Source: Enterobacteria phage Sf101
DNA length: 38,742 nt
Direction: 5' to 3' (one strand)
Sequence record: KJ832078
How positions within the stretch are numbered: position 1 is the stretch's first letter; every line of letters starts with the position of its first letter. The notes under the pieces are model-generated. The model had not been told where the DNA came from. It made no database searches and worked only from the letters and a program-made list of their open reading frames with translations. Shown one piece after another: positions 1,843 through 17,634 of the stretch. The translations under genes were made by a program, and so were the position numbers.

Positions 1843-4041
1843 ATGGCAGAAAAAAAGATGACTGACTGGCATCGCAAGGTGCTGTGCAACTTTGATAATG
1901 CCTGGTCAGCAACGCAGGATATGCGTGAGCAGATTATTGAGGCTCAACGTTTCGTCCGGGTGTCCGGCGCACAGTGGGAAGGCAGCACAAACGCTGGTTA
2001 CTCATTTGATGAAGGCAGGTTTGAGCATTACCCGCGCTTTGAACTGAATAAGATTGCCCGTGAATGTGATCGCATCATTGGCGAGTATCGACAGAATCGC
2101 ATCAGCGTTAAATTCAGACCGAAGGACGATAAGGCATCGGAAGCGTTAGCCGAAAAGATGAACGGCAAATTCCGCGCTGATTATCAGGAAACATCCGGTG
2201 GCGAAGCGTGTGATAACGCATTTGATGATGCTGTAACGGGCGGATTTGGTTGTTTCCGCATGTGTGCCGATTACGAAGATGAAATGGATCCGAGTAACGA
2301 GCAGCGACGCATCAGCCTTCTTCCTGTTTACGACCCAGCGACATGCGTCTTCTTCGATCAGGACAGCAAGCAATATGACCGTTCTGATGCTATGTGGGCT
2401 ATGGAAATGTTCTCCATGACGCCTAAAGCGTTCGAGGCTGAATACCCTGATTCCATCGCGGCAGGCCTTTCTCGTGATGACACTGGCACTCAATATGACT
2501 GGTCAACGCCAGATGCCATCTATGTTGGGCGCTACTACGAAGTTCGCATAGAGAAGGTGAAGCTCACGGCATGGCGCAACCCTGTTAGCGGAGAAACGGC
2601 AATCTATGATGAAGATCAAATCAAAGATATTGTCGACGAGCTGACCGATGGCGCATTCGAACTGATTGGCGAGCGGACAGTGAAGAAACGCCGCGTTTAT
2701 TGCGGTCTTCTGTCTGGCGCTGAATGGCTGGAAGAACCGAAGCGTATTCCGGGTGAACATATTCCTCTCATCCCGGTATATGGGCGTCGTTCATTTGTTG
2801 ATAATCAGGAGAGAATCGAAGGCCACGCAGCAAAAGCGATGGATGCACAGCGTCTTGAGAACCTGATGGTTTCCATGATTGCAGATAACGCTACTCAGGC
2901 TGGCGGTGATGGCATTCCTGTAGTTGATGTTGACATGATTCCTGGTCCTCTCGCCACTCATTGGGCGGAGCGCAACAAAAAGCGCCCGGCGTTCCTGCCG
3001 ATGGTCAGTCTGAAAAACAAAAACGGAGATATTACTGCGCAGGCTCAGGTCAGCAGTTATACGCCTCCGACACAAATGCCTCCAGCTCTTGCCGGGCTAT
3101 TGCAGTACACCGGAACGGCTATTCAGCAAATTACAGGTGCGTCGCAGCTTGAGAACATGCCGAGCAACGTCGCCACCGATACCGTTGATAGCATCTTTAA
3201 CCGGATGGATACGCAGTCCTATATCTACATGGACAACATGGCTAAATCCATGCGTCGCGCTGGCGTTGTGTGGCTTTCTATGGCGCGTGAGGTCTATGGC
3301 AGTGATACGCCGATGCGTATCGTTAATGAGGACGGCAGCGATGACGTGGCGCTGATGACTGGTGAAGTGGTTGACCGTCAGACAGGGCAGGTTATCGCGC
3401 TTAATGACCTTTCGCAGGGCAACTATGAAGTGACTGTCGATGTCGGTCAGTCGTTCGCTACTCGCCGTGATGCAACGGTTAAGTCGTTACTTTCCATGCT
3501 GGCACTTATCCCACCAGGAACGCCGAAGCACGACCTTGTATCGTCGATGATTCTCGACAATATGGACGGCGAAGGGATGGACGACCTTAAAGAATACAAC
3601 CGCAATCAGTTGCTTCTGTCTGGAGTTATCAAGCCGAGAACACCAGAAGAACAGAAGATGGTTGAGCAGGCGAAACAACAACAGGCCAGTCAGCCAGATC
3701 CGGCTATGGTTGCTGCGCAAGGTCAGCTTCTTGCTGGTCAGGCTGAATTGCAGAAAGCGCAGAACGAACAGGCAGCCATTCAGGTTAAAGCATTCCAGGC
3801 ACAGACTGATGCTCAGGTTGCAGCGGCAAATGTTGTGAAAATACTCGCATCTGCCGATAGTCAGCAGAAATCTGATATCCGCGAGGCTCTGAAACTGCTC
3901 GGACAGTTCCAGCAACAGCAAGGAGACAATGCCCGTGCTGATGCAGAGCTTGTCCTGAAAAGTCAGGCACAGGGTCATGCGCAGCGCATGGACATCAGCA
4001 GCATCCTGCAAAAATCAACTCAGCAACAACCACAGCAGTAA
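1843..4041 (+). CDS. Portal protein (P22 gp1 / Sf6 gp3-like)
   Basis: 732 aa, size and position typical of P22-like portal; Q-rich C-terminal helical barrel region (QQQASQPDPAMVAAQGQLLAGQAELQKAQNEQ...). Confidence 0.85.
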   Translation: MAEKKMTDWHRKVLCNFDNAWSATQDMREQIIEAQRFVRVSGAQWEGSTNAGYSFDEGRFEHYPRFELNKIARECDRIIGEYRQNRISVKFRPKDDKASEALAEKMNGKFRADYQETSGGEACDNAFDDAVTGGFGCFRMCADYEDEMDPSNEQRRISLLPVYDPATCVFFDQDSKQYDRSDAMWAMEMFSMTPKAFEAEYPDSIAAGLSRDDTGTQYDWSTPDAIYVGRYYEVRIEKVKLTAWRNPVSGETAIYDEDQIKDIVDELTDGAFELIGERTVKKRRVYCGLLSGAEWLEEPKRIPGEHIPLIPVYGRRSFVDNQERIEGHAAKAMDAQRLENLMVSMIADNATQAGGDGIPVVDVDMIPGPLATHWAERNKKRPAFLPMVSLKNKNGDITAQAQVSSYTPPTQMPPALAGLLQYTGTAIQQITGASQLENMPSNVATDTVDSIFNRMDTQSYIYMDNMAKSMRRAGVVWLSMAREVYGSDTPMRIVNEDGSDDVALMTGEVVDRQTGQVIALNDLSQGNYEVTVDVGQSFATRRDATVKSLLSMLALIPPGTPKHDLVSSMILDNMDGEGMDDLKEYNRNQLLLSGVIKPRTPEEQKMVEQAKQQQASQPDPAMVAAQGQLLAGQAELQKAQNEQAAIQVKAFQAQTDAQVAAANVVKILASADSQQKSDIREALKLLGQFQQQQGDNARADAELVLKSQAQGHAQRMDISSILQKSTQQQPQQ

Positions 4042-4131
4042 TTAACCCATAACGTGCAATGGCTGTCTTTATGAGGCCTGGCACCCTATTGCCTTCCGAT
4101 GGGCTGAACATCGAGTAAACAGGGGTAACAA

Positions 4132-5025
4132 ATGGACCAGATGGCAGAAAACACACCAGAAGTTGAAATCGAAACCGACGCGTCAGAGCAGATTCCTGAT
4201 GATGTCGAACTGGCTGAAGAAGTCGAAACAGAAGATGGCAGTGAGTCCTCCGGCAATGATGTAGAGGAAGATACTGAAACTGATGCCGACGAATCAGAAC
4301 AGGAATTCTACTTTGGTGACGAAAAGCTGGATTCGCCAACCAGCGAAGATGGCGCAGAGCATGGACTGGTAAAACACCTGCGCAAGACGATTAAAGAGAA
4401 AGACCGTGAGCTGAAAGAGCTGATGCGTCAGTCTCAGAAACCCGTCGAGCAGCAGCCGGTAATCACTCAACCACCGCGAATGCCAAAACTGGATGATGAG
4501 GACATCGGTTTCGATGAAGAAATCTACCAGCAACGCATGGCTAAGTGGGCAGAGGATAACGGCAAGTACCAGCAACAGGAGATGGCTCGCAAGCAGAAGG
4601 AGCAGGAGCTTCAGGCTGCCTATCAAGAGCGATTATCCAAATATCAGCAACGTGTTAAGGCTCTCAAAGTACCTGGCTATCAGGAAGCTGAGCAGGCCGT
4701 ACTCGAGGAAATCCCCATCGAGACACAAAACGCGATCTTGTTTGAGTCAGAGAAGCCGGAAATCGTTGTTCTGGCACTCGGCCGCAACGCTGAACTGCGC
4801 AAGCAACTGGCAGAAGCTACCAACCCCGTAGCAATTGGTCGTCTGCTGGAACGTATCGAATCGAAGGCCAGAATCATGCCAAAAGCAAAAACCACGGCAG
4901 CCACAACCCCGACAGTTAAGGGGAGCAACGGCGCAGTAATCAACAACCTCGACAAACTGAAAGCCAAGGCGCTGGAAACTGGTGACTGGACGCCGTATTT
5001 CGCCGCTAAAAAGGCAAAAAAATAA
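4132..5025 (+). CDS. Scaffolding protein
   Basis: 297 aa between portal and coat; strongly acidic N-terminal third, helical charged body, basic C-terminus (AAKKAKK) as in P22-like scaffolds. Confidence 0.65.
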   Translation: MDQMAENTPEVEIETDASEQIPDDVELAEEVETEDGSESSGNDVEEDTETDADESEQEFYFGDEKLDSPTSEDGAEHGLVKHLRKTIKEKDRELKELMRQSQKPVEQQPVITQPPRMPKLDDEDIGFDEEIYQQRMAKWAEDNGKYQQQEMARKQKEQELQAAYQERLSKYQQRVKALKVPGYQEAEQAVLEEIPIETQNAILFESEKPEIVVLALGRNAELRKQLAEATNPVAIGRLLERIESKARIMPKAKTTAATTPTVKGSNGAVINNLDKLKAKALETGDWTPYFAAKKAKK

Positions 5026-5043
5026 CCTATCGGAGCATTAAGC

Positions 5044-6297
5044 ATGGCTAACCAATTAGCAAAAGACCTTGAAATCATGTTCGAAAACTACGTTGAAGGC
5101 TTTGAGGCCGCCTGCGTAGTTTCCCGTAACGCTAAAAAATTCCGTCCCGGTGATACAGCAATGCAGCGAGCAGGTGATGTTCTGTATCGTCCGCAGCATT
5201 ACCACATGAACATTGAGGAAGGCCTCGACCTCAGCAGCAAAACGCCAACAGCACTGGTTCAGCGCCTTGTTCCTTCTGTGTTCAAGGAGCCGAAAAACAT
5301 TCTGTACACTCTGGATGCGCGTGAAATGCGTGACCCGGAACATAAAACTGAAGCTGGTCGAGCCGCAGGTATGCGCCTTGCTGCACAGATTGACTCTGAC
5401 CTGATTTCCATGGTCACGCAGCGTGCTACTAACGTGATCACAATGGCTGACTCAACCACTGGTTCACAGGGCCGTGATTTGTGGAACTGTGCGGCAGGTA
5501 TTGATGCCACCATGACGGCGATTGGTGTACCACAGGGTATCAACCGCCGCTCTTTCTGGAACCCCTTCAACTACAAAGACCTTGCTGGCGAGCTTGGTCA
5601 CCGTGCCTATGCTCAGGGCGCAACCCTGACAGCATACGAAAAAGCGCAGATCCCTCCGGTTGCGTCCTTCGATAGCTACAAGACGGATATTTCTGGTCGT
5701 GTTCCGAAGGGTACAGCAACTTCCCTGACGCTGGCGGCTGAACCTGCGCACAAGGTTGAAGCGAAAGATGCCAACGATATGCCAGTGGATAACCGACAGG
5801 GGACTATTACGGTATCTGCATCTGGGTTGCAGGTTGGCGATGCGTTCACCATTGCTGGCGTGAATTCTGTACACCAGATCACCAAAGACACCACCGGGCA
5901 GCCGCAGGTATTCCGCGTTCTGGCAGTAAGCGGAACGACAGTAACTATCTCCCCGAAAATTCTGCCGCCTGACAACGCGGATGTCGCCAGCCGACCATAT
6001 GCAAACGTTGATGCTAACGCGGCAAATGGTGCAGCAATTACCATTCTCAACAAAAATGCCGCACCGGCTAACCTGTTCTGGGCTGATGGTTCTGTTGAAC
6101 TGATGTACGGCAAACTGGCGTTCCCAACTGGTCAGGGTCCACAGGTAATGACGGCAACCACCGAGCAGGGCGCTACGCTGATCATGTCTTACGCCTTCGA
6201 CCACATCAAAGGCGTAACCACTGCGCGTTTCACCACTCTGTACGGTTGCTCTGTACTGGTTCCTGAATATACGGGCATCGTTATTGCCGGGCAGTAA
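5044..6297 (+). CDS. Major capsid (coat) protein
   Basis: 417 aa; GGAG RBS upstream at 5032-5035; position after scaffold; size matches P22/Sf6 coat proteins. Confidence 0.85.
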   Translation: MANQLAKDLEIMFENYVEGFEAACVVSRNAKKFRPGDTAMQRAGDVLYRPQHYHMNIEEGLDLSSKTPTALVQRLVPSVFKEPKNILYTLDAREMRDPEHKTEAGRAAGMRLAAQIDSDLISMVTQRATNVITMADSTTGSQGRDLWNCAAGIDATMTAIGVPQGINRRSFWNPFNYKDLAGELGHRAYAQGATLTAYEKAQIPPVASFDSYKTDISGRVPKGTATSLTLAAEPAHKVEAKDANDMPVDNRQGTITVSASGLQVGDAFTIAGVNSVHQITKDTTGQPQVFRVLAVSGTTVTISPKILPPDNADVASRPYANVDANAANGAAITILNKNAAPANLFWADGSVELMYGKLAFPTGQGPQVMTATTEQGATLIMSYAFDHIKGVTTARFTTLYGCSVLVPEYTGIVIAGQ

Positions 6298-11530: not shown

Positions 11531-14266
11531 ATGGCTAATTACCGTGATTTGTTAGAGCAGGCTGGCGCACGTTACGGTGTGCCAGAAGGGTTGATGACTG
11601 CACTGGGTGCCAAGGAGTCTTCTTACAACCCTGCCGCAGTAAGCTCCGCCGGGGCTGTAGGATTGACTCAGGTCATGCCTGGGACATGGCGTGATATGGG
11701 TTATACCGATGAGCAAATGCAAAACCCCGAATATCAGGCTGACGCTGGCGCGCGCTATCTGGCAAAGATGTACCAGCAGTTTGGTAACTGGCGTGATGCT
11801 CTTCAGGCTTATCACGACGGTCCCGGCAACGTTATGAAGGCAAAGCGTGGTGAATATACGCCAGGACCTGAAGGCCGCGGTTACGTTGATGATCGCTTTG
11901 CTCAATGGGCGGGTGACCCGGTGACAGACTCAACAGTCGAACAGCGCGCCACCTCTGCAAAGGTACATCCTCAGCAAGACCCTAACAACCCGTTTGCACA
12001 ACTGGAAGCACAGTCATCCGAACAAGTATCGGCATCAGGTGTGCAGTCAGACCCAAATAATCCATTTGCTCAGATTGAGCAGCAGGCAGCCAGTCAGCAG
12101 CCACCTCAACCCGTAAGTTCTGTCGCACCGAAACCTGTTCAGCAACAAACAGTTAATCAGGCCAATAATGAACCAGCACGTGAAGAACCATCATTGATGC
12201 AACAAGCTGGCGATTGGCTCACAGGTGGTCAAAGTGCAGGGCAAATTGCAGAGCAGGCTGGTCGTGGTCTGGTAAACATACCATTTGACGTATTGCAGGG
12301 TGGCGCAAGTCTGATTAATGCAATCAGCCAGGGGCTTGGTGGCCCCAAGGTTTTGGACGATGTCTATCGTCCAGTAGATCGACCGACAGACCCTTATGCG
12401 CAAGCTGGAGAGTCAATAGGCGGTTATCTTGTTCCTGGAGCAGGAGTAGCTGGAAACATGGTCATTGGTTCTCTCGCTGACGCGGCGAATCAACGGGGTG
12501 ATTTTGCCGAAAATGCCGCTATTAATGCCGGACTTAACATTGCTACGCATGGCCTGATAAATGGCGTTACCCGTGGTGTTCGTGGTGCATCAAATATAAT
12601 TAGTGGCAATAAAACATCTGCACAGAGAGCGACCACTGCGGCAACAGAAACATCACCATTCTCCGGTGATGCCGCTGCAGCAACAAATCCTGCGGTTCAT
12701 GCCGCAGAGGCAAGAGTAGCACAAGGTGTACCAATGACGCCTGCGACGAGGAACCCAGAGGAAGTCGTTCGCACAGTAGCAGCACAAAAAAGGCCAAATC
12801 TCGCTTCATCGCTTGATGAACTAGATATCAATCCTCAGGCTGAAGTTCTGGAGTCTGCTGAAAGGCTTAATGTTGATTCATTACTCCCTTCACACTTTTC
12901 CGGGAACGAGCAATACAAGGCAGTTGAGCAAGCAATCAAGTCCCGTGCGGGTTCTGCTCTACAGGTGCAGGAAAATGAAGCAATCAGGCAGCTAGCACAG
13001 GGCGCGGGGGAGATAATTGATCGCGTTTCCGGTGCAAAAGATGCTCTTGGTATGAGCGACAAGTTTATTGATACGGTCAATGGAAGAATGTCTGCGCTGA
13101 TGAAACGAAGCGACCAGCTTTATCGCAATGTTGAAAAGGCGATGCCTGCAGGTGCAAAAATTGATGCGCCATCAACAAGGTCAATGCTCAAACAGGTGGC
13201 AGAAGATCTTGGCGGGATGAAAAACCTTGACCCTATTGAAAAGAGAGTCTTTCGGGCAGTTAATCCAGGCAAGAACGGCGCATTAACTTATGCAAATCTC
13301 AATAAGCAACGACGACTTGTTGGTGATGCACTTCATAAGAATTCTGGACCATATAAAGATGCTGATCGCGCTGCTTTATCGAGGCTTTACGGTTCGCTCA
13401 CCGATGATCAAAAGGCGGCGCTGTCAGAGACAAATGCATTACGTGATTTTGAAGTTGCTCAGAGGCTTGTTCAGATGCGAAAAAGCATGGAAGAGCAAAT
13501 GATTAATCTAACTGGCAGAACGCTGAACGGTGATGTTTCTCGCAAAGCAACTACAGCACTACAGGCAATGTCGAAAGGCGATGCCAAAGGATTTCGTGAA
13601 TTGATGCAAAACACGCCGTCCAGGAAGCTAAGAACCGAGCTACTGGGAACAGGTCTTCGGGATATGCTTTCGAACGGAAAACGTGGCGCTGATTTTAATC
13701 CTGCAGGGTTTGCTGACTGGTATCAAAACATGTTAGCAAACGGGCAGATGCGCAATCTTGCCCGACATTTACCAAAAGAGACTATGTCAGGTCTGAACGA
13801 TGTATATAAGGTCGCAAAGGCTATCAAAGATGCAAAATCTTACGAGATAACTACAGGAAGACTAAACGAGTTCGTCAAACGGTTTAATCGCGTCACTGCG
13901 GCAAATGAATTTGTTGCTAACCATGCCCAACGCATTGGCACTGCGGTTGGTTCAACTGTGTCAGGACCGTTCAGTGCAGTAGGTGCTGTTGCTGGGTCAG
14001 AAATTGGGGCAAAAGTCGCCAGCAAAATCAGGGCGATGGGCGGCGCTGAATCAATTGAATCTGCAGAAAAGCTAATTAGCTCACCAGAATTCCAGAAAGC
14101 AGCAAGGCTGGCAGTAAAACAAGCACCAGAAAGCATCGTTGATACAACTGTAAGACGCTCTTCTGCTTGGCGCTCGTTTTACAACTCACTTCCAGAATCA
14201 GATAAGAAAACCATATCAAGGCTAGGCATCATGTACTGGATGAACAGTGATGATAACCAGAAGTAA
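11531..14266 (+). CDS. Ejection protein, gp16-like, with N-terminal lytic transglycosylase (SLT) domain
   Basis: 911 aa; N-terminal ~110 aa carry SLT signature ([28 protein letters not shown]... AYHDGPGN); then Q/P-rich linker with repeated DPNNPFAQ(L/I)E; last large gene before the tailspike. Confidence 0.7.
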
Positions 14267-14283
14267 CGGAAAGCCACGGATGG

Positions 14284-14544
14284 TTAGCTGCTGTCTTTTT
14301 TATATAGCTCCTTGAGCGTATCAAAGACAATTTTCTTGACCATATCAGATTGTTGTTCTGCCATACGCTCTGCATCGTCAATGTAAACTGATGCAGAGCT
14401 TTGTTTAGCCAATGATTCTTCAATCGCTGCAATTATCTCTGAGTTCAGCGACCTGTTATTCATCTTCGCGAGCTGTTTAATTTTCGCGTGGAGTTCATGC
14501 GGAAGTCTCAAGTGAAACTGCGCCTCGTCGTATTTGCTGTACAT
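14284..14544 (-). CDS. mnt: Mnt-like ribbon-helix-helix repressor (immI-type)
   Basis: ORF-track 14284..14577; start taken at internal ATG 14544. C-terminus DAERMAEQQSDMVKKIVFDTLKELYKK closely matches P22 Mnt (DAERLADEQSELVKKMVFDTLKDLYKK) as recalled. Confidence 0.8.
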   Translation of the reverse strand: MYSKYDEAQFHLRLPHELHAKIKQLAKMNNRSLNSEIIAAIEESLAKQSSASVYIDDAERMAEQQSDMVKKIVFDTLKELYKKDSS

Positions 14545-14665
14545 CCTTGATGCCTCACCAGTTGGGTGGAATGGCATCGTAACCTACTGGATAAATACTC
14601 AATAGTACCATTTCGGTATGCAATCACATCATGGTTGCATCATATCATTCGTCTGGAGCAATGAA

Positions 14666-16408
14666 ATGTCAGATATCACCGCAAATATTGTGGTAAGCAT
14701 GCCTTCGCAACTCTTCACTATGGCGCGTTCTTTTAAAGCCGTAGCCAATGGCAAAATTTATATCGGAAAAATTGACACTGACCCGGTAAATCCTGAAAAC
14801 CAGATTCAGGTTTATGTAGAGAATGAAGACGGATCTCACGTCCCTGTTTCTCAGCCAATTGTTATCAATGCTGCCGGATATCCTGTGTACAACGGGCAGA
14901 TTGCCAAATTTGTAACTGAGCAAGGCCATTCAATGGCTGTATATGATGCGTATGGTTCGCAGCAGTTCTATTTTCAGAATGTGCTGAAGTACGATCCTGA
15001 TCAGTTAAAGCAGTTACTTCAATCAGATGAAGGAGCTGCTCACATTGGCACTAATAGCGGCAAAAATCTCCAAGAGGAGCTATTTGCAATAAAAAATCTC
15101 CAAGAGGAGCTATTTGCAATAAAAAATGAAATATATCAAGACCCGCTTACATCGTGGCCTTTCGGTGGAACATTAAAAATAAAGCAAGGGGTGTACGATA
15201 TCGCGTCACCATTAGTGCTTGATTACGGCAACTATGACGACAGACTTCCCGGTTCTCCTGGTGTTCGTGCCCATTACGAAGGCGAGAACATGGCGGAAAC
15301 CATCTTTAATTGTCAGGGTACGGATTTTAACCTCAAGATGCTAGGGGATACCGTTGGGGGGACCCAACGGGTGCATGCATACGATTATCTCGGGAATATT
15401 ACGCTTAAAGGCTCCGCAACATCTTACGGTCTTCTCGTAACCAAGAAAGCATATACCAAGTTAGAGAACATAGTATCTTACGGGCATGACAACGGCGAAG
15501 GTTTACGTACAGATTCTGTATTAACTTCTGAATTGGATAATGTGTACCTACAGTCAAATCGTATTGGGTGGCGAGTGCTTAATTCTGATGGTGGGTCAGA
15601 ACTTAATGCAATTACTGTCAACAGATTAACCGCAAGCCAGAATACACAATGGGGTATTCTTGGTGAGAGATGGGGTGCAGGGACTACCATCAATAGCCTT
15701 ACATGTGAGGGTAACGGCACGCAGGGTGACTCTGACACTGGCGGCATGATTATTAACGTGAACGGTCTTAATGGATCATGTGCTTTGGTACTTAATAACC
15801 CATATTTTGAGGCCAACGCCGGCGGTTCTGACCTTGCCATTAATAACACAGGCACACGTCCAGTAACAGTAGTTATCAACGGTGGAAACTTCCATCGGGG
15901 TAGTAGTACAGCGTACACTACCTACAACATTTTAGCTAGTTCTACTGGTGGAGGGAAATTAACAGTCATTCTCAACGGGACGACATTCCAGAGTGCTGGT
16001 AGTTACGTGCCAGACGCATCGCGGCCATACTGGCGAGAGTTAGGTAATGTTGAGTTTATAGATATAGGTTGCACGTTCATGGAGGCAACAAGTAAAGCAA
16101 TATCCATTTCCTCTGGCAGCATTCCACGTTCTGGAAGAATTAACGCCAATGGTAGTGTAGGCATCGCCCCGGGCGTGTCCTCGGTAAATGTGGTAGGTAC
16201 AGGTGTTTATGATGTAACTTTTTCTAACCCGCTCGCAGTAGCCGCGGATTGTTATGTGGTGCAGATAACGCCAATATCAGCACCCAATTCTGTGAGTTGT
16301 GATGTTACTTATATTGGCGTAGATACATTTAGGGTGACCCTGCGCGATACGCTTAGCGGAGCAGGAATCTCCAGTTCGTTTGCATTTAGCATTACCAGAC
16401 TACTATAA
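14666..16408 (+). CDS. Tailspike protein (P22 gp9-type head-binding domain + divergent receptor-binding domain)
   Basis: N-terminus [11 protein letters not shown]...[23 protein letters not shown]...NVLKYDPDQ matches the conserved P22/Sf6/HK620 head-binding domain; GGAG RBS 9 nt before ATG 14666 (the ORF-track start 14618 is probably an upstream extension); C-terminal ~450 aa do not match any tailspike I recognise. Confidence 0.9.
15062..15121 (+). repeat. Perfect 30-bp tandem duplication inside tailspike (in frame, [10 protein letters not shown] x2)
   Basis: aaaaatctccaagaggagctatttgcaata occurs twice head-to-tail (15062-15091, 15092-15121); a partial third copy (aaaaat) follows. Confidence 0.95.
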
Positions 16409-16461: not shown

Positions 16462-17634
16462 TTATTGATTGTTGTTTGTTAATGTGGGTATTAATTCTTT
16501 TACTAAAGTTGTGGTTTGTTTTGTTAATTTGATGAATGGCGTCTCTATTAATTTAAAAGTTAGGCATGATGTGAACGTAATAAGAAATGCAGTTGTGCTT
16601 ACCAGTATGATAAATGTATTTTCAGTGTAATTATTAGGAATAATCCACGTCATTAGGCAATAAAGGAATATCCCATGCAGAAGGTAAACGCTGTAGGTAG
16701 TTTCTCCTAGCTTTCTGGTTATATTTAATCTTAATATTCCATACAAATCACAACCTGATGCGATAATGATAAATGTTATTCCACAAAGAATCAGTGGTAG
16801 CGGTGCGTAAGTTGTTTTGAAATACGTCATTTCAAAAATCATTATCGCAGTTATTATAATTGGTGTTACTTTTGCTTTGGCAATTCCATTGACTATCTTT
16901 GATTTATTTAGCAAAAATGCCAGGAGCCCAAAAAGAAATGATACTATGTGTATTTTACTGAAAAATAAAATGAAAACAAATAGCGATATTGCGCTAATCA
17001 TAACCATGTAAATACTGACTTTTCTTTTTATGAGCGCGGAAATTACCGGAAGAGAAAAATAAAAGAACCATTCATATACAAGTGTCCATGTTACAGCGGC
17101 ATTGATAGTAAATGAATCTTTTACGTCATTAATGTTCGGCATACCTAGTGCAGTGAATGGCAACCACTTCATTATTGACACAAAAAGCTCTTCTGTGGAT
17201 ACCTGCATTCTCCATCCAGACTTAAAACCTACAATGATAAAAATGAGACATAGGCTAACTATGAACATTGGGGTTAATCGTAGTAATCTTGATACATAAA
17301 GCCTTGTCCAGTCCTGATCTCCAGAGATAATCTTTGAAAAGAACAGATAACCAGTAATCATAAAAAAGAATGACACACCAACTTGGCCTAAATTTGCTAA
17401 CAGATTTGATGAAGGTGCTTCCCATACTCCAGATGACAAGTATCCATTCCAAATTGCTGCGTGATGAATAAGCACGAAAATTGCTAAGAACCCCCGCATT
17501 CCATCTATTTGATTATTCCTGCCGTGCTCAACAAGATTTATTGGGGAAATTTTATCAAATAACCCCACAGCTAATAACGACATCAATATCACGGATGTTA
17601 TTAATAATAAACTGTTAATTTCAATCATATGCAT
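16462..17634 (-). CDS. Acyltransferase-3 family integral membrane protein (putative O-antigen acetyltransferase)
   Basis: 390 aa, multiple hydrophobic segments; N-terminal family signature (NQIDGMRGFLAIFVLIHHAAIW); strongly AT-rich relative to the rest of the genome; sits between tailspike and attP/int like oac in Sf6 and gtrABC in P22. Confidence 0.8.
   Translation of the reverse strand: MHMIEINSLLLITSVILMSLLAVGLFDKISPINLVEHGRNNQIDGMRGFLAIFVLIHHAAIWNGYLSSGVWEAPSSNLLANLGQVGVSFFFMITGYLFFSKIISGDQDWTRLYVSRLLRLTPMFIVSLCLIFIIVGFKSGWRMQVSTEELFVSIMKWLPFTALGMPNINDVKDSFTINAAVTWTLVYEWFFYFSLPVISALIKRKVSIYMVMISAISLFVFILFFSKIHIVSFLFGLLAFLLNKSKIVNGIAKAKVTPIIITAIMIFEMTYFKTTYAPLPLILCGITFIIIASGCDLYGILRLNITRKLGETTYSVYLLHGIFLYCLMTWIIPNNYTENTFIILVSTTAFLITFTSCLTFKLIETPFIKLTKQTTTLVKELIPTLTNNNQ

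Follow-up and report, generated by a model that had tools for sequence, protein, structure and literature searches.

What can a Mnt repressor do in a phage that lacks the genes it normally controls? To our knowledge, the only known job of Mnt, a textbook ribbon-helix-helix repressor, is the silencing of the P22 antirepressor. An earlier note on the DNA of phage Sf101 described a mnt homologue standing without arc and ant beside the tailspike gene, and regarded it as possibly repurposed to regulate that gene. Orphan mnt genes were described before for phages L, ST64T, and ST104 (PMC2629481, PMC8022706), and their published function in Salmonella phages is unknown, being considered either another function or a remnant (PMC2629481, PMC8022706). 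[quoted passage not shown] 2008 (PMC2629481), and phages ST64T, ST104, and Para1 carry in it only mnt plus one unknown gene (PMC2629481). In the literature searched, no paper settling the function of orphan Mnt was found, and nothing that goes past PMC2629481 and PMC8022706.

Organization of the mnt locus

The window, which is the whole stretch of DNA analysed (38.7 kb), represents a temperate phage whose genome is mosaic and P22-like (Lederbergvirus-type). The mnt cassette is preceded by the last late gene, a gene-16-like ejection gene (11531..14266, plus strand, from the ORF list). It encodes a DNA transfer protein of 911 amino acids, with an SLT transglycosylase domain at the N-terminus (Pfam, E = 3.3e-25), whose homologues are annotated as DNA transfer or injection proteins. 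The mnt gene (14284..14544, minus strand) is transcribed against the late operon, between the positions of genes 16 and 9, as in P22. Its stop codon is 17 bp from the end of gene 16 at 14266, which leaves no space for sieA, and its start codon is separated from the tailspike ATG (14666) by a spacer of 121 bp (14545-14665); both points had been made in the earlier note, and the distance of 121 bp is exact given the mnt start at 14544. The tailspike gene (14666..16408, plus strand) encodes 580 amino acids, in which a P22-type head-binding domain (Pfam Head_binding, residues 1-113, E = 2.6e-65) is joined to a different receptor-binding part. Its Shine-Dalgarno sequence, GGAG, was read at 14655..14658 of the plus strand, and TGGAG is near-universal among the tailspike leaders compared. 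An acyltransferase gene (16462-17634, minus strand) follows the tailspike gene, with the integrase next.

The minus-strand ORF at 14284-14577 matched Pfam Arc (PF03869, E = 5.7e-14, residues 18-60 of the long ORF), and the mnt product also matched Pfam Repressor_Mnt (PF11423, E = 3.3e-14). Two structures were hit, the Mnt N-terminal domain (PDB 1mnt, E = 3.7e-18, residues 6-79 aligned) and the Mnt tetramerisation domain (PDB 1qey, E = 1.7e-8, residues 56-84). These matches corroborate the homologue seen between the last ejection gene and the tailspike, and show that the ORF encodes a full two-domain Mnt, composed of an Arc-like ribbon-helix-helix domain and a C-terminal tetramerisation (coiled-coil) domain. 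The protein shares 47.5% identity with P22 Mnt, together with the domain composition, the position between genes 16 and 9, and the orientation. P22 Arc has the same fold, and the beta-strand of the Sf101 protein, with its QF-LR-P motif, resembles that of Arc (QFNLRWP) more than that of P22 Mnt (HFNFRMP); on the other hand, Arc has 53 amino acids, another operator, and no Mnt tetramerisation domain, which Sf101 has (PF11423/1qey).

The start of mnt is most likely at 14544, predicting a protein of 86 amino acids. This position lines up with the P22 mnt start in the alignment, and PGAP (NCBI) calls an identical CDS of 261 nt in E. coli H1. A Shine-Dalgarno sequence, GGTGAGG on the minus strand (14553..14559), lies 8 nt before the ATG and is kept in the upstream regions of the orphan Mnt classes B and C described below. 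The longer ORF of 97 amino acids from the ATG at 14577 was rejected: it has no Shine-Dalgarno sequence, its ATG falls within a conserved GATGCC/-10 element, and PGAP uses 14544. Nor is the upstream ATG (14577) conserved as a start, since it falls out of frame in class B. The GATGCC motif is one arm of an inverted repeat, GATGCC-N18-GGCATC (14549..14578), which spans the mnt Shine-Dalgarno region and the predicted Pmnt -10 and is kept in both orphan classes. Its plus-strand fold has -14.9 kcal/mol (z -2.2).

Absence of arc, ant, and other partner genes

Across the whole 38.7-kb window, no tblastn match reached an E value better than about 0.3 with P22 Arc, Ant, SieA, or orf59a, nor with the Rha/KilA proteins of JEP4 or the antirepressor of VSe13. 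Pfam scans of 20 early-region ORFs gave no antirepressor family; the usual lambdoid set was found (S24 repressor, CII, O, helicase-primase, Nin, Q, Erf, Abc2, and others), and five early-region ORFs had no Pfam match. The lack of arc and ant reported before is thus upheld by tblastn and Pfam over the window, and the same searches found no arc/ant pair elsewhere in the genome, a finding that would have spoken against the orphan status. With regard to a complete immI region (mnt-arc-ant-sar), arc, an antirepressor gene, and a strong Pant are all missing in Sf101. The spacer of 121 bp is too short for an arc gene of 53 codons. A spacer ORF of 32 codons (14566-14664) was considered as a hidden arc-like or other small gene and rejected, since a 2-bp indel between the classes with 121-bp and 135-bp spacers shifts its frame and the resulting peptides are unrelated.

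Mnt classes and genomic contexts

A total of 317 loci was gathered with four Mnt queries, taking the best 80 matches per query, and sorted by tblastn. In this survey (best 80 per query), the recognition beta-strand of Mnt defined three main classes with strictly distinct contexts. In the P22 type (HFNFRMP), arc adjoins mnt in 76 of 83 loci of the 317-locus survey (best 80 per query). The tailspike adjoins mnt in 62 loci of class B (QFNLRLP; phages L, ST160, and Gally) and in 139 loci of class C (QFHLRL followed by P, T, or S; phages Sf101, JEP4, and VSe13), again among the best 80 per query. Sf101 itself has QFHLRLP, so that its recognition residues are Q-H-R as compared to H-N-R in P22. Among the best 80 matches per query, none of about 230 class B and C loci had arc beside mnt. 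The context that had appeared special to Sf101, and a sign of rare repurposing, is therefore universal in two Mnt classes (about 230 loci, best 80 per query).

In 27 class B and C loci of the survey (best 80 per query) the tailspike gene was scored as far from mnt, and in these cases the junction of mnt, operator, leader, and tailspike start is intact. In most of the class C loci of this kind, the tailspike gene is interrupted after a few codons by an HNH-type endonuclease gene, beyond which the tailspike starts a second time. The sequence between gene 16 and mnt turns over, while the mnt module stays.

The module is widespread. Among 5,426 complete E. coli genomes, 273 carry the segment formed by mnt, spacer, and tailspike start (253 with at least 80% of its length), and the gene is annotated there as "Arc family DNA-binding protein". 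The natural lysogens E. coli H1 and G3/10 are among those with a module 99% identical to that of Sf101. Relatives are encoded by 435 IMG/VR viral contigs, the best 80 of the 435 being at least 93% identical. The gene is directly divergent from the tailspike in phages IME10, ECO26.1, Gally, JEP4, VSe13, ST160, and SE1. IME10, ECO26.1, and the E. coli prophages have a Mnt 96-99% identical to that of Sf101 and share with it the 121-bp spacer, the predicted operator, and the leader hairpin; in IME10, mnt is present but unannotated.

Phages L, ST64T, ST104, ST160, and SE1 resemble Sf101 in having mnt without arc and ant, divergent from the tailspike, with Pmnt and the dyad kept and Pant degenerate. 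The Salmonella orphan-mnt phages differ in their spacer, which has 135 bp (ST160 checked) as compared to 121 bp. Phages of the L/ST64T type also keep an extra gene between gene 16 and mnt, while in Sf101 mnt stands alone before the tailspike, and their tailspike leader differs from that of Sf101. The Mnt proteins of class B in these phages and class C in Sf101 are about 56-57% identical. The Sf101 cassette is, then, a class C allele with the minimal layout of the already-known orphan-mnt ant moron.

Traces of its origin are found at other loci. Behind the operator of one class C locus (L148), the final 86 codons of a P22-type ant are still present, and the 135-bp spacers have the P22 gene-9 leader as their right half. 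This ant relic and this leader half point to deletion of arc and ant as the origin of the orphan cassettes.

Predicted Mnt operator

The annotated P22 operator Omnt, AGGTCCACGGTGGACCT, follows a CTCAAT motif, just outside the Pmnt -35 and just downstream of the Pant -10. In the spacer alignment, this position is occupied in Sf101 by a dyad of 17 bp, AGTACCATTTCGGTATG (14604-14620), which is 1 bp from the predicted Pmnt -35 and has the core TACC-N5-GGTA at 14606-14618, centred at 14612. As in P22, the dyad has 17 bp, abuts the -35 of a leftward Pmnt, and is placed at an equal distance from the start codon. The statement that the canonical P22 operator is absent from Sf101 was thus right as to the sequence AGGTCCACGGTGGACCT, which is missing; its place is taken, at 14604-14620, by a positional homologue that differs in sequence.

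In P22 the operator arms are AGGTCCAC-G-GTGGACCT (GGTCCAC-G-GTGGACC), and in class B the dyad is AAGACCAC-N-GTGGTCT, with the central base free. The class C dyad can be written as (A/C)GTACC(A/G)TTT(C/A/T)GGTA(T/C)G, with the core form GTACC-NTTTN-GGTA(T/C), and has the form GTACC-N5-GGTAT in Sf101. Among 158 class C loci (best 80 per query) there are 19 unique variants of the dyad, and all of them share the TACC, TTT, and GGTA elements unchanged. Where the dyads depart from P22, the changes in one arm have their mirror image in the other (G:C to T:A, T:A to A:T), as expected of a site for a dimer of dimers. Over the 317 loci (best 80 per query), each class has its own dyad, but the distance to the mnt ATG is fixed, with centres 66-71 nt away in all classes, and operator and Pmnt form conserved islands between variable flanks.

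The predicted site is solitary. Even with two mismatches allowed, AGTACCATTTCGGTATG was the sole match in the Sf101 window, and a single good match to the class operator was found per locus in each of 93 loci scanned. No second Mnt operator with up to two mismatches was found in the window or in neighbouring genes, as before the Rha/KilA gene of JEP4-type loci. An exact-match scan of viral contigs with the class C core found at least 70 stretches beside mnt and at least 49 unrelated ones, mostly coding, the 15-mer being too short for a database of this size. Among the viral-contig matches listed in this exact-match scan, none had an arc/ant context. Other contexts for the class C operator were rejected, as the matches listed were only mnt-linked or due to chance in coding sequence.

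Operator specificity is reportedly set by the N-terminal residues of Mnt and Arc, in the work of Youderian et al. 1983 and of Knight and Sauer 1989. The present comparison shows that the predicted operator arms vary in concert with the recognition-strand residues of Mnt. The case for the operator is made by the preserved dyad and its position and not by this association of allele and operator, as linkage of less than 100 bp partly explains co-inheritance. Taken in this way, the Mnt operator is likely to be AGTACCATTTCGGTATG at 14604-14620, rather than the repeat at 14618-14640.

Promoters and terminators

A simple -35/-10 weight-matrix (PWM) scan of the spacers gave the leftward Pmnt as the top site in each class, always at the P22-homologous position. 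In Sf101 it is predicted at 14576..14602 of the minus strand, with a -35 of TTGAGT (14597-14602), a spacing of 15 bp, and a -10 of TACGAT (14576-14581). The PWM score was 14.3 for the annotated Pmnt of P22 (TTGAGA-17-TATCAT), 11.7 for Gally (TTGAGG-17-TAAGAT), 10.5 for ST160 (TTGTGG-17-TATGAT), 9.2 for VSe13 and JEP4 (TTGTTG-17-TACGAT), and 8.5 for Sf101 (TTGAGT-15-TACGAT). A spacing of 15 bp ordinarily makes a poor promoter; the Pmnt call is weakened by it in the class with 121-bp spacers, where the promoter may be weak.

The rightward direction is different. The strong Pant of P22, overlapped by Omnt (TTGACA-17-TATATT), scores 16.7, as compared to 5-7 for the rightward sites of the orphan classes. 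In Sf101, a degenerate remnant of Pant, ATGGCA-N17-AATACT (14571..14599, plus strand), has 8 of 12 consensus matches and a score of 6.8, and is probably weak or dead. The best rightward site differs among the orphan classes, and its position is not kept in the 135-bp spacers or in class B. In the region 14100-14800, from gene 16 to the tailspike, a consensus scan reported no rightward promoter and no intrinsic terminator was predicted. As judged from these scores and alignments, Pant, the target of Mnt in P22, is shown to be largely decayed in the orphans, while the predicted Pmnt and operator persist. Sf101 further differs from P22 in lacking arc, ant, sar, sieA, and orf59a.

The inverted repeat of the tailspike leader

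The repeat ATGCAA-N11-TTGCAT proposed as a candidate operator does exist at 14618-14640. If only its 6-bp arms are considered, it does not exceed chance, since 32% of dinucleotide-shuffled spacers and 30% of 121-bp segments of the phage contain such a repeat. Folded as a plus-strand hairpin (14618..14640), it becomes AUGCAAUCA-CAUCA-UGGUUGCAU, a stem of 9 bp with one G.U pair, which 2.4% of shuffles reached, centred about 36-37 nt upstream of the tailspike ATG.

Loci with a Mnt 95-99% identical to that of Sf101 can have a different leader without the ATGCAA-N11-TTGCAT repeat, and in this alternative leader the sequence upstream of P22 gene 9, CCGTAGC-CAT-GCTGCGG, is equally far from the tailspike ATG. 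In 147 unique tailspike leaders, stems with a centre between -38 and -35 and a length of 6 bp or more were counted. Such a stem exists in 118 of the 147 when G.U pairs are allowed on the plus strand, in 5 when they are allowed on the minus strand, and in 3 with Watson-Crick pairs only; there were 30 distinct stem sequences, and shuffles give 4%. One leader (L007) carries a compensatory double change, ATTCAA..TTGAAT. P22 has such a hairpin too, as do P22-type phages carrying arc and ant.

Folding energies of the spacer hairpins, calculated on single sequences, were modestly better than shuffles (z -1.0 to -2.2), and a search for an Rfam family in the spacer gave a chance-level match only. As single-sequence thermodynamics is weak, the case for the hairpin stands on the comparative data. 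G.U pairing that works on the plus strand only, together with the leader position, indicates an RNA hairpin and not a palindromic DNA operator. The comparison thus assigns the repeat at 14618-14640 to a predicted plus-strand RNA hairpin of the tailspike leader, independent of the Mnt class, and its reading as an operator does not hold, the repeat being absent beside nearly identical Mnt proteins. Candidate roles of the hairpin are those of a 5' stabiliser, a processing site, and a recombination boundary.

Selection on mnt

The mean pairwise dN/dS was 0.14 for 83 loci with an allele of the Sf101 type, comprising 54 unique nucleotide alleles (best 80 per query). Full-length ORFs were found in 158 of 160 class C and 71 of 73 class B loci (best 80 per query), and pseudogenes are rare, examples being a locus with an internal stop (L009) and one truncated class C allele. 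These values show that the mnt ORF is under purifying selection, which argues against a decaying relic.

Possible functions of the orphan cassette

We propose, with moderate confidence, that the Sf101 cassette is a self-contained unit of mnt, the predicted Pmnt, and a single putative 17-bp operator, left over from an immI region after the loss of arc, ant, and sar and kept by selection, in which the Mnt tetramer would autoregulate. The tetramer would bind 14604-14620. As the operator abuts the Pmnt -35, its centre would precede the predicted transcription start of mnt by about 45 bp, in all classes, and bound Mnt would from there regulate its own synthesis in the lysogen. Autoregulation by itself leaves the retention of mnt by selection unexplained.

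The operator would also lie on the sole path of RNA polymerase from gene 16 into the tailspike leader. Given this sole path without a terminator, bound Mnt may, as a roadblock or through occlusion of weak initiation, act as a gate, which would block stray or weakly initiated rightward transcription into the tailspike gene in the lysogen and might trim late read-through in lytic growth. One repressor tetramer on its own often makes a poor roadblock, notably for antiterminated late transcription, and control of tailspike entry by bound Mnt is put forward only tentatively. The idea that Mnt regulates the tailspike survives in part: the region upstream of the tailspike is the only plausible cis neighbourhood, but it has no credible rightward promoter to be repressed (PWM 6.8 in Sf101 vs 16.7 in P22). 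An effect of Mnt and Arc on read-through from Plate into the tailspike was suggested as possible by Villafane et al. 2008 (PMC2629481). Phage Sf6 has no moron at the site between genes 16 and 9 (PMC2629481), and P22 with mnt-ant deleted still gives viable particles (PMC11016777), which indicates that the cassette is dispensable for the supply of tailspikes. A wider reading, in which the class B and C cassettes would be a distinct selected device whose tetramer gates the tailspike in cis (lysogen silencing and late dosing) and maybe in trans on superinfecting phages whose tailspike gene is preceded by an identical operator, is doubtful at present.

Other explanations can be weighed against these. 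Repurposing of Mnt as the repressor of a dedicated tailspike promoter, through binding to the repeat at 14618-14640, has in its favour that the repeat exists, with a compensatory double change in L007, and that the spacer is the only non-coding DNA beside mnt. The repeat, however, travels with the tailspike leader and not with mnt, since loci with a 95-99% identical Mnt have another leader, and hairpins at the same distance occur in 118 of 147 unique leaders, including those of P22-type phages bearing arc and ant. In addition, it is maintained through G.U pairs functional on plus-strand RNA only (118 leaders vs 5 and 3), resembles no Mnt operator class, and has no good rightward promoter candidate beside it, so that this explanation is very improbable. 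The prophage Mnt could also act in trans, as a form of immunity, by silencing the ant promoters of incoming or co-resident phages with the same operator and so shielding C2. Mnt of a P22 prophage silences ant of both the resident and the superinfecting P22; purifying selection without a cis target would fit such a role, and the relic in L148 indicates that class C once controlled ant. Against this, arc or ant lies behind the operator in none of about 230 class B and C loci (best 80 per query), the Rha/KilA genes that follow mnt in JEP4-type loci come with a C2-like repressor of their own and no Mnt operator, and the class C core appears in no arc/ant context among the viral-contig matches listed. 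We consider such immunity unlikely.

The authors of the phage L study left open whether orphan mnt is a remnant or has another function (PMC8022706). A functionless immI remnant, decaying and awaiting loss, would account for the disappearance of arc, ant, sar, and the strong Pant, and for the occasional pseudogene (the internal stop of L009 and the truncated class C allele). It is quite improbable in view of the dN/dS of 0.14, of about 98% intact ORFs over two old and diverged classes, of the conservation of operator and Pmnt between variable flanks, and of the persistence of the module while the interval between gene 16 and mnt turns over. Leftward transcription from Pmnt could itself be the output, interfering with leaky expression of late or ejection genes or with tailspike read-through, at a level set by Mnt. 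Pmnt is the best-conserved signal of the spacer, mnt ends 17 bp from gene 16 without a predicted terminator, so that its transcript would be antisense to gene 16, and the convergent arrangement of mnt and the late operon is universal in the survey (317 loci, best 80 per query). This explanation has little probability, as it leaves the constraint on the whole protein, tetramerisation domain included, unaccounted for and would depend on a promoter that is maybe weak, given the 15-bp spacing of the Sf101 class.

Implications

What is new here, on the evidence of sequence comparison, is the indication of selection on orphan mnt, its predicted operator and promoter, the three putative specificity pairs, and the conserved tailspike-leader hairpin. 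The autoregulated cassette that we favour belongs to two large natural classes of Mnt which have no antirepressor but retain a promoter, an operator that co-varies with the protein, and the marks of strong purifying selection. This retention of promoter, operator, and selection argues for "another function" in the question raised for phage L. If the cassettes should prove to be a selected device, action in trans would exclude an incoming phage by depriving it of tailspikes. A textbook repressor would thereby have gained a new role, and the classes would represent natural altered-specificity pairs of Mnt and operator. The three natural combinations of protein and operator (H-N-R with GGTCCAC, Q-N-R with AGACCAC, and Q-H-R with GTACC) are material for studies of ribbon-helix-helix specificity. 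There is also a lesson for annotation, as mnt is routinely entered as "Arc family DNA-binding protein", figures as "partition protein ATPase" in the RefSeq records of some phages, or is missed. Finally, the question of what an orphan Mnt does is directly testable in common E. coli prophages.

Intergenic region between mnt and the tailspike gene

In the window, positions 14618-14640 comprise a plus-strand RNA hairpin that is conserved among P22-like phages, and whose centre lies 36–37 nt before the tailspike start codon. The hairpin was found in 118 of the 147 unique tailspike leaders of the window and the surveyed mnt loci (L002-L317), which present 30 different stem sequences, and its G.U pairs are compatible with the tailspike-sense strand only. 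Phage P22 itself carries this hairpin, as CCGUAGC-CAU-GCUGCGG, and no family matching it was found in Rfam.

Closer to mnt, the inverted repeat GATGCC-N18-GGCATC (14549-14554 and 14573-14578) covers the Shine-Dalgarno region of this gene and the -10 element of its predicted leftward promoter, Pmnt. The arms are conserved in both orphan Mnt classes, B and C, which were never found next to arc in the survey of 317 loci; the inner part varies between loci, and the repeat is absent from P22. The variants give contradictory pointers on which strand would fold, if either does.

Tailspike gene

The tailspike gene contains a perfect 30-bp tandem duplication of 2.2 copies (15062-15127), located directly after the head-binding domain, which stays in frame and doubles a 10-residue peptide. 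In other loci (L017, L047, L057, L063, L066, L069, L075, L077, L083, L087, L091, L097, L102, and L106), an ORF of approximately 165–180 aa for an HNH/AP2-like homing endonuclease, encoded on the opposite strand, interrupts the tailspike gene after about the seventh codon. The insertion separates mnt from the full-length tailspike gene, and a second, complete tailspike start is found approximately 530–610 bp further along.

Genes adjacent to mnt

On the other side of mnt, 11531-14266 encodes a gene-16-like ejection protein of 911 aa, in whose N-terminal part Pfam recognises an SLT lytic transglycosylase domain (E-value 3.3e-25). Phage JEP4 (locus L005, positions 3270-5930) and about 50 similar loci present a separate second-immunity-like module between gene 16 and mnt, which is convergent with mnt. 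This module includes a C2-like S24 repressor gene, divergent from a small ribbon-helix-helix gene, and the Rha and KilA genes; no Mnt operator was found in it.

The mnt gene and its products

Several RefSeq phage records (e.g., NC_002371, NC_014900, and NC_011976) list the mnt product as "partition protein ATPase". For a ribbon-helix-helix repressor of 83 aa, this name appears to be a misannotation.

Comparison of the window Mnt (14284-14544) with those of JEP4 (L005, 3001-3255) and VSe13 (L002, 3841-4095) revealed a mosaic protein, in which a class C DNA-binding half is joined to a P22-like tetramerisation half. The N-terminal half is common to the three proteins, the C-terminal halves of JEP4 and VSe13 are unrelated to that of the window, and the crossover point is the linker between the halves.

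In locus L148, a P22-type ant gene has left its final 86 codons between a predicted Mnt operator of class C and the tailspike gene, approximately 110–450 nt upstream of mnt on the tailspike side. This remnant is a relic, which shows that an antirepressor was formerly under class C control and was then lost by deletion.
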